A DNA stretch of 64,000 nt. Origin: Flaccisagitta enflata. Lineage: Eukaryota. This document shows positions 28,601 through 34,600 of this stretch, in pieces (within the stretch, counting starts at the first letter, position 1; every line of letters begins with the position of its first letter). Under the pieces are notes generated by a model. That model saw only the letters and a list, made by a program, of their open reading frames with translations, ran no database searches and was not told where the DNA came from. Position numbers and translations under genes: made by a program. The stretch lies in assembly GCA_965153355.1 (NCBI GenBank), contig OZ231126.1, forward strand, positions 8,308,001 through 8,372,000. The letters run 5' to 3'.

Positions 28601-31600
28601 CGGTCACCAGGAGGTCCCATCTCGCCTCTCACTCCTTGAGGTCCTTGGAATCCTTGAGGTCCCTAGAAATCAAAATAAAGAGTAAAAGACATGTTTTAGG
28701 TTTTATAGTTCAATGATGAGAAAACTGCAGAAACTGTCTACAAGCAAAATAAGTACAAAAAGCGTACATCAAATGAGAAAGCGATTAAAGAATTCAATTG
28801 CTTTTTTGGGTTCGACAAAGCACCTCTATAACTGGCTCTGTCCGTCGGTCGGTCGGTCTGTCTGTAACGCATTCGTTCGACGATCAACACGTCGCACCTT
28901 ATTGGCCTACTTTGCCTTGTTTCTTTTTTTTCCTTCTTATTTTGCATGACAGGCGACTAGTTTTCTTTTAATGGATCACTTGCTTTTAAGTTTCAAAGAA
29001 GAACCAGATTACCAAGTCTACTATAACACTACGGTTACTTCGCAGTTTTGAAAAGCTAGATTTAAAAATATCTGAATACATGAAGAAAAAACAATATTGT
29101 ATATAACAACTGAGCCTGTAAAAATGTTGATTTCTGATCAAAACCGTACTCTTCATTAGTTCATTTTTAGATGCGTCATCGCATCTCTATAAGAGAGTCT
29201 GTCCGTCCGTCGGTCCGTCCGTCCGTCCGTCCGTCCGTCCGTCCGTCCGTCCGTTACGCCTGTGCAAAAACCGCGTTTCTCGGCTGCTTTTGGCCATGGT
29301 GAGATCCTACACTGAAACAAGCGATAAAGCAAGAAGGCTCAAAATTATCAAAATCAATTATCATCATCATCATCATCATCATCATCATCATCATCATCAT
29401 CATCATCATCATCATCATCATCATCATCATCATCATCATCATCATCATCATCATCATCATCATCATCATCATCATCATCATCATCATCATCATCATCATC
29501 ATCGTCATCCTCAAGCTTCATGACCGTAATTATCTTACTAGCTTTACCGCCCAACATTCTTTGTCTCCCATTCTTATCACCATTGTCATCATCTTAAACA
29601 ATAAAAACAACTACAACAACAACATTAACAACAACAAAAACAACAACAAAAACAGCTACAACAACCACAGTAACAACAAGCAACAACAATATCAACAACA
29701 ACAACAACAACAACAACAACAACAACAACAACAACAACGACGACGACGACGACGACGACGACGACGACGACGACGACGACGACGACAACAACAACAACAA
29801 CAAAACAACAACAACAACAACAACAACAACAACAACAACAACAACAACAACAACAACAACAACAACAACAACAACAACAACAACAACAACAACATCATCA
29901 GCCTCATAATCACCATCGACATCATCATTTTTTATTGTTATTGTTCAACTTGATCACAAATAGAGTCACCAGAACACATTCTCAGATTCTCAGAAATCGT
30001 AGATATACATTGCACAGTCCTCGGCCTACTTAATAATTCTTTACATTTCTTAACTATCAATTTCTTTGTAAAGAAATGCACATTTTCAAGCAGAAACAAA
30101 AGTCTCGTAATTATCAGCATACTTCATATATTTAGAGTATAATAATTTTGAATGTAATAACAACAATATTAGAATTAAGACTCCCTCAATGGTAACTTAC
30201 AGTTAAATATGCATTATTTCAAATTAAATGTGTTTACTATATTCAGTTTAAGTAAAGTGAGACTTCATCTCTACTCAAGCGAAAGAAAAAAAAGCTGAAG
30301 TTATATAGATTTTTTTGCAGAATTCAAAACAAATACAATTTTTGCCAGTAAAAAGTGGCAACAACGGTGATAAATACAGAGGGGGGATGGGCAGTACTAT
30401 GTTGGGAAAAAAGAAAACTTTCCACCCTGAAAAAAAAACTTTGAGAAAGGTCTGCTTTAAAACAAAGTGATTTCTAGTCTCCAGATTGTCAGTATTGGAG
30501 AGTTGAGACATCTTTTTAATACGGGACTTGTCTGGGGTCTGTAGCTTTATTTCTTTTTTAGCAGCGCACTTCCCAAGTTTTTTTTATTTTTTCAGAGCAG
30601 AATATCTATTCTTCCCAAAATAGTAGTTGTTTCTTTTTTGCACTGTTTTTTTTCTTTTTTATATAACATCTGACTAACGGGAGGTCCGGCGGGTCCGGCG
30701 GGTCCTCTGGCCCCCGGTGCGCCGACTTCAGTATGGACGCCGCCCGCGGCACCCCCGCCCCCAGATTTGCCCTTCCCTGAGGACTTCTTGGGAGTTCGGC
30801 GAGAACGAATACCGGCAAAGTCCTCCAACTCAACAGCCGCAGAGGAGGACTTTTTTTTTAATAAATATGGTCATTTAGACGTTATAGATGGGGTTGTTAG
30901 TGGAAATGATAGGGATAGGATGAGAGATGAAGGGGGGGGGGGGAAATGAGCCCGTGAGAAGAAAAAGTGTGGGGGGGAAAGACAGTAGAAAAAGAGAGGA
31001 GAGTAGAAAGTAGGGAAAGAAGGGGAGGAGAAGAAAGGAAGGAAAGAGGAGGGGAACAGGGAGAAAGGAAGGAAAGAGGAGGGGAGAAGGGAGAGAGTAA
31101 GGAAAGAGGAGGGGAAAAGGGAGAAAGGAGTGAGAAGAGGAGCAGGGGAAAAAATGACCCCATCAGAGGAATATGTGAGAAGGGAAAAGGATAATGGAAA
31201 AGGAGAGAAGGGAGGACGGAGAGAGGAGAGGAGAAGTAAGAAAGAAAGAAGCAGTGGAGAAGGGAGAAAGGAGAAAGAAGAGAAGGGAGGAAGAAGAAAG
31301 GAGCAGGAAGAAAGCAGAGAAGGGAGGAGAGAGAGAGGAGAGGAGAAAGGGTTTTCAATGAAAGAGATAAGTTTGAAGGGAAAGAGAAAGAGATATAGGA
31401 GAGAAGCAATGGCCATAGAGAGAGGGGGGCATTTGTAAGAGGGTCAAACCCCGAGGTTAGTTCCGAGGGAGGGAGGATTTAGTACAGTGATATTGTGTTA
31501 AATCTGGTGAAATGGTAACAATTGGAAAAGTGACTAATTGGTGTTAATTCAGAGTCAACTGAGAAAATAAAGGAAGGAAAAAAGTAAGGCTCAGCTCCGT

Positions 31601-34600
31601 CATTCGTAAACCAAGAGAGAGAGAGAGAGAGAGAGAGAGAGAGAGAGAGAGAGAGAGAGAGAGAGAGAGAGAGAGAGAGAGAGAAAGAGAAAGAGAGAGA
31701 GAGAGAGAGAGAGAGAGAGAGAGAGAGAGAGAGAGAGAGAGAGAGAGAGAGAGAGAGAGAGAGAGAGAGAGAGAGAGAGAGAGAGACAGACAGAAAGACA
31801 GACAGACAAACAGACAGACAGACAGACAGACAGACAGACAGACAAATAGCCTGAAAGATTCAAACAGAAATACAGAATCTTACAGACAGACAGGCAAGAA
31901 CCCAAGATAGATAGACAAACAGACAGAAAGACAGACGGATAGGCAGAGACACTCGGACAGACAGAGACAAGAAATGCCGCCGAAAGGGGAAAGATGCGTC
32001 TTACCGCGGGTCCGGCGGGTCCGGCTTGTCCTCTGGATCCTGGGGCGCCGATTTCCGGTTGGACGATGGGAGCAGCGCCGGATTTTTTGGGCGTCCTTCT
32101 CTCGCGGTTGCCGGAAAAGTCGGCCGCGTCAGACTCGGGCCATTCACGAGGTAGAAGACGAGGAAGCACTTTCATATCGACATCCGTCGTCGAAAGATCT
32201 ACACCAACACCACAACAAAGTATACAAAGGCAAAGGCGGGACATGTGGTGAAGAGGTTGATGGTTGGGGTTGAGGATGTTGGTGATCATGACAATTGGTC
32301 GTGGTAAATCATAGCGGCGGTGGTTGTGATGGTGATCATTGTAGTGGTTTTTTTTTTGGTTTTTTTTTGGGGGGGGGACAATTATCATGACAATTGAGTG
32401 ATGGTAATGGTGGAGGTTGTGGTAATCAGTTAGAAATGGTTGTGTTGATCATTTGGAAATGGCACATGTTGTGGTGATCAATTTGAAATGGTGGAAGTGA
32501 TATTGGAAATGGTTGTGTTCATCATTTAGAAATGGTAGAGGTTGTGGGAATTATATGGAAAGGGATGTGGTAATATTTTCGAAATGGCAGAGGTTGTGAT
32601 AATCATTTGGAAATGGTTGGGGCAATGGTTGGGAGGGAAAAAAAGAAAATTGGCAAAAAAGGGGTTTAGGATAGACTTTCAAAACTGAAATTGATGAGCA
32701 TATAGTTATATGATTTATTGAATTCACTCGAATTTGTAAAGAAGTAAGTCACTTTACGTCTACTAGTATATATCACACTATCTCATTGTATTTCCCGCCC
32801 TTAAAAAACGAAGCAACATTTCGCGGAAAATGTACATATGAGTGAAACAGAATCTATGAATCGGGGCGATATCATTGAATTATCATCATCATCATACTTG
32901 CCCTTCTCTTTGCTAATTTATCCTTCAACTGCCATCGCATGAAATGAACGATAAAATCAATGAATGTCCTTCGGATGGATGATTGAGTGAACGAATGAAT
33001 GTCGCGTCAAATGAGTGCGTGTCCTTTGAACGAATTGATCGTCCTTCAATATAAAAATCATCCTTCGGTTACGTCCTCTTCGTCCCACCATGAACCCAGT
33101 CAAAAACGCGATCACAAAGTCAAAAAGAGACAAATTCAAATGTAAAATCCGCTACCTCTAGGCCAATGTTGGAGGGATTAATTTTGTCAACAAATTTACA
33201 TGGTCAAATTGAATAGTCAAAAGGATAATTGAAAATTTCAAGGCCAAATCAGAATGAAAAAAATTTTTACCTGCACAAACGGGGCAACATTTGCCAAGAG
33301 GAATGTATTTCAACTTGCATCTTCCGAGAGACGGACAGATCACCCCGGAACACCGAAAATCGGCTTACATACGTCAAACAAAAGAGTATAATTCTCTGAC
33401 TATGATGCGGCCTCGCACATGGAGGAGAAATCATGTCCGTCCGTCTGTCTGTCTGTCTGTATGTATGTATTTCTGTCTTTCCACCCGTCCGTGCTTCCTT
33501 CCGTCTGTCTGTCCATATGTGAGATTATTGGTCGGTTGGTCTGGAATGCATTCGCTATCCCGATGCTTTTCTTCCTTCCAACATCACCCCATGCCTTCCA
33601 ACAGTTACCAGTTCATTCATTCATTCATTCATTCATTCATTCATTCATTCATTCATTCATTCATTCATTCATCCAGTGTCAAATCCATTTATTCATTTCA
33701 TTGCTATGGGGCACAGTATATCCTTTTAAACAGTTTTTGTAGCCGGAAAAAAGGGGCGATCGGGCGTACTTGATCACATAATAGTCACGAGAATTCAGTA
33801 GGATGGATTCAATTTGGGCATTTACAAAACAAGGCCGGATACAAAGTTACCCCAGTCACTTGCACGTAGGCAGAAGCAATAATCGAGGGCAGGAGCAGTG
33901 AAGCCAAAAACTGCAAAACCTAAAAAAAAGTAAAGTGTGATGGACGGACTGACGGACTGATTGACTGACAAAGCGGGGTGTAAAATAGCGTGGCGTGCGA
34001 TTAAAAATTATTGCCAAGTAATTTTTATGTACTATTTGTATGATCAGAGGCTAATATTCTCTTTGCAAAAATAAATTGGACTTGATCCAGACACTCTGTC
34101 ATCAATGCTGTAGTTGTATAGAAATTAGAATAGAAGTGGATGAAATTTCTCCCACAACTACAGTAATCAATTCCATACAACTACCGCACTGATGATGGAG
34201 TGCAAAACCAAATCCTGATTGATATTTGCAAGTTGGTTTGGCTTCAATTACACAAATTGAATATGAAAAGTGCTTCCATTCAAAAGCCCAAAATGAGCCC
34301 GGCCTAGTGTTCATTGAATGATCGAACTCGGATATAAGTCGCAACTAGATATTAATCATCACCCCTCAAACACTCACCCTATCTCAGCGATCCCCCCCCC
34401 CTCCCCCCCAACGCACACAGGAAAAACTTAAAGTGATGATTAAAAGAAGACTGAATTCTTTAACCGTTTGCAGGTGTCGGTGTCGAGGGAAAAAGCGAAA
34501 AGCTGAGAGCAGAAAATTGAGAGAGAGAGAGAGAGAGAGAGAGAGAGAGAGAGAGAGAGAGAGAGAGAGAGAGAGAGAGAGAGAGAGAGAGAGAGAGAGA

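Follow-up and report, generated by a model that had tools for sequence, protein, structure and literature searches.

A duplicated exon with a predicted cleavage site and N-telopeptide in a fibrillar collagen gene is spliced into RNA and may be optional

The stretch analysed here, 64,000 nucleotides (nt) of Flaccisagitta enflata contig OZ231126.1 (positions 8,308,001 to 8,372,000 of the forward strand; the window hereafter), is microsatellite-rich eukaryotic DNA with a fibrillar collagen gene on its minus strand. Near its 5′ end the gene has two similar exons, X and Y, each encoding an R-x-R-R motif, a tail containing lysines and a few Gly-X-Y triplets. RNA contigs firmly establish that Y is a real coding exon, spliced between X and the next helix exon, Z. 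In the explanation we favour, Y is a working duplicate whose use is optional and whose product would be cut by a convertase to leave an altered telopeptide. Taken as a whole, that explanation seems to us to have an even chance of being right.

Exon Y and its splicing

The elements on which the argument turns are as follows, in window coordinates.

E1, 37809-37737, minus strand: exon with the start codon and a 24-residue signal peptide, ending in phase 1, donor GTACAG
X, 32198-32005, minus strand: exon of 194 nt, phase 1-0, encoding a short propeptide, R-E-R-R (32106-32095), a 15-residue tail with two lysines and five helix triplets
X-Y intron, 30850-32004, minus strand: 1155 nt, 81% pyrimidine, with (CT)n at 31614-31842
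CACTAAC, 30902-30896, minus strand: branch-point-like heptamer about 48 nt upstream of Y, read from the sequence
Y, 30849-30679, minus strand: exon of 171 nt, 57 whole codons, phase 0-0, acceptor AAG, donor GTTAGT
Y product: R-S-R-R (30807-30796), a Gly-rich 24-residue tail with four lysines and five helix triplets
Z, 28662-28555, minus strand: first 108-nt exon with main-helix triplets only, its acceptor serving X or Y

X and Y share a common layout: D-F-x-G-x-R-x-R-R leads into T-P-K-K-S, and after a non-helical tail there are exactly five Gly-X-Y triplets. The first two bases of X finish a codon and its 3′ end is a whole codon. Since E1 ends in phase 1, the frames E1-X-Z and E1-X-Y-Z are both open; E1-Y stops after six codons. 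A mutually exclusive pairing of X and Y is ruled out by this stop and by the phases. A first-pass annotation, made from the sequence alone, had already described the two exons with these coordinates, strand and phases, with two and four lysines respectively in the tails after R-x-R-R and with five triplets closing each exon. All of this holds, as does its claim that Y can only be added after X, never replace it.

Sampled words of Y occur in six RNA runs from three marine plankton studies (shares 0.92-0.23). Four runs (X1, X4, X5 and X7) were aligned to the tandem-repeat-free Y side, 29900-30985. In run X1 one contig (record 2; 151 nt) matches 30719-30850 without a mismatch and has a further 19 letters identical to 32006-32024, the 3′ end of X, a match that is unique within the window. 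A longer contig from the same run (record 1, 2495 nt) and one from run X4, which belongs to another study (record 3, 216 nt), contain the 3′ part of Y and then pass into Z, their loose end being 28632-28661, the start of Z and again unique within the window. In both runs depth is zero in all bins outside 30677-30861, with no cover on either flanking intron. The junctions in the RNA contigs are 32005>30849 (X to Y) and 30679>28662 (Y to Z), at the AAG acceptor and the GTTAGT donor, precisely the two that had been predicted. The annotation had named lack of transcription of Y as fatal to its proposal; this is not the case, Y being spliced in RNA contigs of two studies. The contig depths, 2.8 for the 5′ part of Y and 7.2 for Z with the 3′ part of Y, are whole-contig means and no measure of inclusion level.

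Run X5 yielded one contig, about 93% alike, that extends 29 nt into the downstream intron and has a net in-frame loss of 3 nt; it was rejected as splicing evidence and represents an unspliced relative. None of the approximately 12.2 million records of run X7 (raw poly-A reads) matched 29900-30985, the presence of the organism in that run not being established.

The gene, its relatives and the two exon copies

Among metagenome contigs, a pattern scan picked out 506 stretches, and four of these were confirmed (L001-L004). All four are full-length spliced collagen mRNAs, with open reading frames (ORFs) of 1353-1369 residues (1353 in L001-L003), and align collinearly with the window exons at 72-90% nucleotide identity. 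L001, the one of the four that was scanned, has Collagen (Pfam, E = 9e-151) and COLFI domains. In the alignment E1 matches the 5′ coding end of L001-L003; its signal-peptide character was assessed by eye. On the minus strand the Gly-X-Y exons extend from 28662 to 11624 and are collinear with the ORFs of 1353 residues in L001-L003; exons at 9701-9513, 8769-8548 and 8041-7913 score 48.7, 61.4 and 28.5 bits against Pfam COLFI (cut-off 26.2). In the protein atlas the C-propeptide finds generic COLFI clusters only. A long uninterrupted Gly-X-Y helix with a C-terminal COLFI domain marks the gene as one for a fibrillar collagen. That its product has a minimal N-propeptide, just a signal peptide and then some 35 residues, is part of the explanation outlined above and shares its evenly balanced standing.

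The two exon copies are paralogues, as had been proposed. Their protein alignment scores 126, which none of 2000 shuffles reached (mean 34, maximum 61), and the non-helical parts alone score 58, again beyond all of 2000 shuffles (maximum 39). Over 38 aligned codons there are 14 identities, 14 silent differences and 10 residue changes, and five of the silent differences fall within the eight conserved residues of R-x-R-R-T-P-K-K-S. Half of the residue-keeping codons (14 of 28) thus differ silently, which supports protein-level selection on both copies since the duplication.

Word-based protein searches found no longer proteins containing X or Y. A near-length search with X gave one match, P0001, and an exhaustive profile search with Y gave two, P0002 and P0003; all three are unspliced and so carry no splice information. 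P0002 is 98% identical to Y and has lost three residues in frame. P0003 is 83% identical to Y, has R-K-R-R, and its likeness stops at both exon borders. Exon X is conserved in P0001 and in L001-L004, and D-F-x-G-x-R-x-R-R-T-P-K-K-S is invariant in all five rows of our alignment (A1) and in the four related mRNAs.

X-type sequences are 78-100% identical among themselves and Y-type sequences 84-93%, with 50-60% between the types. To date the duplication from this identity matrix alone would be unsafe, since faster change in Y would mimic age, and that estimate was dropped. The silent-site comparison is weaker, covering 25-38 codons, but fairer: silent divergence is 0.50 between X and Y, 0.29-0.39 between the window X and that of L001-L003, and 0.55 between the window X and that of L004. 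Because 0.50 exceeds 0.29-0.39, it weakly suggests that Y is older than the split of the window gene and L001-L003.

Could Y be a decaying duplicate, included just as splicing noise? Its weak acceptor (see below) and its absence from all four related mRNAs would fit. Against this, its frame is open and its motif has been kept through 14 silent changes, Y is conserved in a relative with 83% identity and sharply ending borders, the observed indels preserve the frame, and the assembly leads through Y into a 2495-nt collagen mRNA contig. We consider such decay very improbable indeed.

Constitutive or optional use of Y

The splice signals of Y look like those of a regulated exon, a view supported by comparison of 16 acceptors (the row of a VWC-like candidate exon, described below, was excluded from the counts). 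The Y acceptor reads TTATTAAAAAAAAAG up to the exon, which begins TCC, and is the weakest of the 16, with 8 pyrimidines in the 20 positions from -23 to -4 where the others have 10-16. The AG-free zone upstream of Y, at 652 nt, is the longest; that of X is 475 nt and those of the other 14 are 13-162 nt. Against a usual zone of about 40 nt this places Y among exons with a large AG-exclusion zone. Equally, the X-Y intron, with its 81% pyrimidine content, has 8.7 AG per kb, and the other 18 rows show 43-62% and 20-62 AG per kb. The weak AAG acceptor, the CACTAAC heptamer and an AG-free stretch of about 650 nt had all been remarked on in the first-pass annotation, and each is borne out. Human exons with large AG-free zones are described as likely to be alternatively spliced (PMC1431707, in excerpt). 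In the explanation we favour, the weak acceptor and the pyrimidine-rich, AG-free intron would let the cell tune inclusion of Y.

The acceptor of X, for its part, is G/T-rich, its AG-free zone of 475 nt lies at 32199-32673 on the minus strand, and degenerate 23-29-nt tandem repeats are found upstream at 32415-32617.

Direct joining of X to Z was seen only in the related mRNAs: all four read E1>X>Z, without Y. Since all four join X to Z, the X donor and the Z acceptor are a working pair in the gene family. Assembled contigs drop rare variants, so that a minor X>Z form could escape them.

Several points weigh against optional use. The X>Z junction was not seen for the window species, in an alignment that covered the Y side only, and no Y-type sequence was present in the metagenome contig collection scanned. 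The C-propeptides of L001-L004 are just 35-65% identical to that of the window gene, with 41-42% between two groups, and the four may therefore be different chain genes that do not have Y, rather than orthologues. With a consensus-like branch site just 48 nt upstream of Y, the long AG-free zone may result from the CT microsatellites that are common across the window; CACTAAC at -48 is as good a branch-point candidate as any distant one. The contig through Z runs on into Y in both of the runs with junction contigs, which come from two studies. Among the forms assembled in runs X1 and X4, the one that includes Y is thus at least predominant, and these contigs fit a Y that is mostly or always included.

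The divergence from L001-L004 is itself discordant along the gene, the helix exons (11589-28662) being 72-90% identical in nucleotides and the C-propeptide (7913-10649) only 35-65% in residues. Such a contrast points to distinct chain types whose helix is strongly conserved or has been homogenised.

An always-included Y, read X-Y-Z with no switch, would make the X triplets a very short minor helix and leave the real cleavage site and telopeptide to Y. This would mirror the usual arrangement, in which a minor helix is followed by a linker, the cut site, the telopeptide and the major helix. The sole junctions seen for the window species are, moreover, X>Y and Y>Z, the contigs through Z behave as just described, and Y words recur across the six RNA runs (X1, X4 and X5 of which were aligned, X5 giving the unspliced relative). 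That X keeps its own R-x-R-R-T-P-K-K-S despite silent-site turnover is, however, unexpected if only the site in Y matters; the Y acceptor is the weakest of its set; related chains function with X>Z; and contigs cannot prove the absence of a minor form. Constitutive inclusion is a possibility, if a somewhat improbable one, and would amount to an ordinary internal duplication in the collagen of a little-studied marine animal.

Whether Y is an optional switch, that is, a cassette exon, we therefore judge to be finely poised between yes and no. Of the switch as originally proposed, the splicing of Y into RNA, its purely additive nature, the constraint on both copies and the regulated look of its signals have stood; its optional use is the part that the contigs leave in doubt, being compatible with inclusion most or all of the time.

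Predicted processing, neighbouring features and known systems

In the favoured explanation the 3′ two-thirds of X would have been duplicated in tandem to give Y. The propeptide of about 35 residues would most likely be cut off by a furin-type proprotein convertase after the invariant R-x-R-R, exposing the T-P-K-K-S tail, whose lysines would serve cross-linking. Telopeptide lysines control the cross-linking of collagen molecules into fibrils. Y would bring a second complete in-frame module, from cut site through tail to five triplets. If the chain were cut at the downstream one of the two sites, none of the mature residues that X encodes would be retained, and the helix would then bear the longer Gly-rich tail with four lysines instead of the 15-residue tail with two.

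R-x-[K/R]-R occupies the same position in all nine X-type and Y-type sequences (R-E-R-R in X, R-S-R-R in Y, R-K-R-R in P0003). The residues ahead of it vary freely and T-P-K-K-S starts directly after it. A variable propeptide of some 35 residues followed by an invariant R-x-R-R and T-P-K-K-S is a pattern typical of a convertase site. Both convertase cleavage and lysyl-oxidase cross-linking are put forward here as hypotheses, predicted from the motif and by analogy.

Alternatively, the R-x-R-R motifs may not be processing sites, or only the first may be used. In X-Y-Z chains the five N-terminal triplets would then be followed by a lasting non-helical interruption of 42 residues, and the role of the conserved basic T-P-K-K-S patches would lie in binding or elsewhere. 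Certain invertebrate fibrillar collagens are indeed described as not N-terminally processed (PMC10538796, in excerpt), and cleavage at R-x-R-R is a prediction from the motif. Nevertheless, R-x-[K/R]-R lies about 35 residues past the signal peptide, invariant in nine of nine sequences and preceded by variable residues, and nematode cuticle collagens and MACIT collagens use a dibasic N-terminal site of this kind (PMC10538796, in excerpt). We regard this alternative, in all its parts together, as quite unlikely.

Should Y be optional and both sites be cut, its inclusion could amount to a splice-and-cleave swap, replacing the X telopeptide and first five triplets and leaving the mature chain no longer than before. 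The two cuts would free an intervening peptide of 48 residues, and a cassette exon that can only be added would work like a mutually exclusive one, tuning fibril cross-linking via splicing. This further step is doubtful. If true, exon duplication together with a resident protease site would offer a simple genetic route to stage- or tissue-specific matrix stiffness. In that case the locus would also be a living example of how duplication of a telopeptide exon could give rise to a minor helix and a cleavage site.

Other features of the gene deserve mention. A 9980-nt intron (13332-23311, minus strand) splits the helix-coding region, where the remaining introns are 49-1146 nt. The first intron contains a possible optional exon of 93 nt (33271-33363, minus strand; phase 1-1) whose product has six Cys and looks like the C-terminal half of a VWC domain. 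Placed between E1 and X it keeps the frame, and it is absent from all four related mRNAs. Its 30-residue half-domain scores 18.3 bits against Pfam VWC, under the 27.6 cut-off, and is the only VWC-type sequence found in this gene, an A-clade N-propeptide having a VWC domain plus a minor helix. The candidate is reminiscent of the VWC/SURF exons that lie hidden in the sea urchin 1-alpha gene. The neighbouring helix exons P (26486-26593) and Q (26329-26436, both minus strand), each of 108 nt, share 19 of 36 residues across a 49-nt intron and resemble a mutually exclusive pair; the downstream exon Q alone is used in the four related mRNAs. The 3′ regions of L002 and L004 match an element of 53-57 nt at 5359-5414 with 96-100% identity, against just 72-90% in coding exons. 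The element has no Rfam match and may be a conserved regulatory element of the 3′ untranslated region. On the plus strand, head-to-head with the first, lies a second fibrillar-type collagen gene, with a full VWC domain in one exon (52747-52956) and a 13-triplet minor helix that starts at 58300 (stretch 58300-62427). The R-x-R-R-T-P-K-K motif was not found in this second gene.

Alternative N-propeptide exons are well known in vertebrate fibrillar collagens, as in COL2A1 exon 2 and the COL11A1 variable region. They are also described for sea urchin 2-alpha and a possible long isoform of 1-alpha (PMC2852846, in excerpt). Common to these cases and to Y would be optional in-frame exons between signal peptide and main helix. 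There is a further likeness to the sea urchin 1-alpha gene, in which the intron after exon 1 hides unused Cys-rich modules (PMC2852846, in excerpt). The known exons, however, alter only a propeptide that is later discarded; Y carries its own cut site, telopeptide and helix start, and could therefore change the mature molecule.

Mutually exclusive collagen exons are exemplified by exons 9 and 10 of Caenorhabditis elegans let-2. As there, tandemly duplicated collagen exons would vary the protein, and the P/Q pair looks to be of the let-2 kind. Unlike the let-2 exons, X and Y differ in phase, so that any choice lies between X alone and X plus Y. We know of no fibrillar collagen that varies its mature N-telopeptide by splicing, and the literature searched yielded no report of a collagen with an alternative N-telopeptide exon or with a furin site in a cassette exon.

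N-terminal dibasic processing (furin/PCSK, BLI-4) is established in C. elegans cuticle collagens and in MACIT collagens (PMC10538796, in excerpt). The window collagen resembles these secreted collagens in having an R-x-x-R type site shortly ahead of the collagenous domain; they are not fibrillar and have no COLFI domain, whereas the window collagen is fibrillar and its N-terminal site is duplicated. In fibrillar collagens furin is reported at the C-propeptide of pro-alpha1(V) and suggested at the C-propeptide of echinoderm collagens (PMC10381214, in excerpt). With exons of the large AG-exclusion-zone class Y shares an AG-free, pyrimidine-rich stretch of 652 nt ahead of a weak acceptor, but that class is defined in human genes (PMC1431707, in excerpt) and Y has its consensus-like branch candidate at -48. 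Alternative N-terminal collagen exons and dibasic N-terminal processing are both known themes, and the duplicated telopeptide exon described here is a variation on them.

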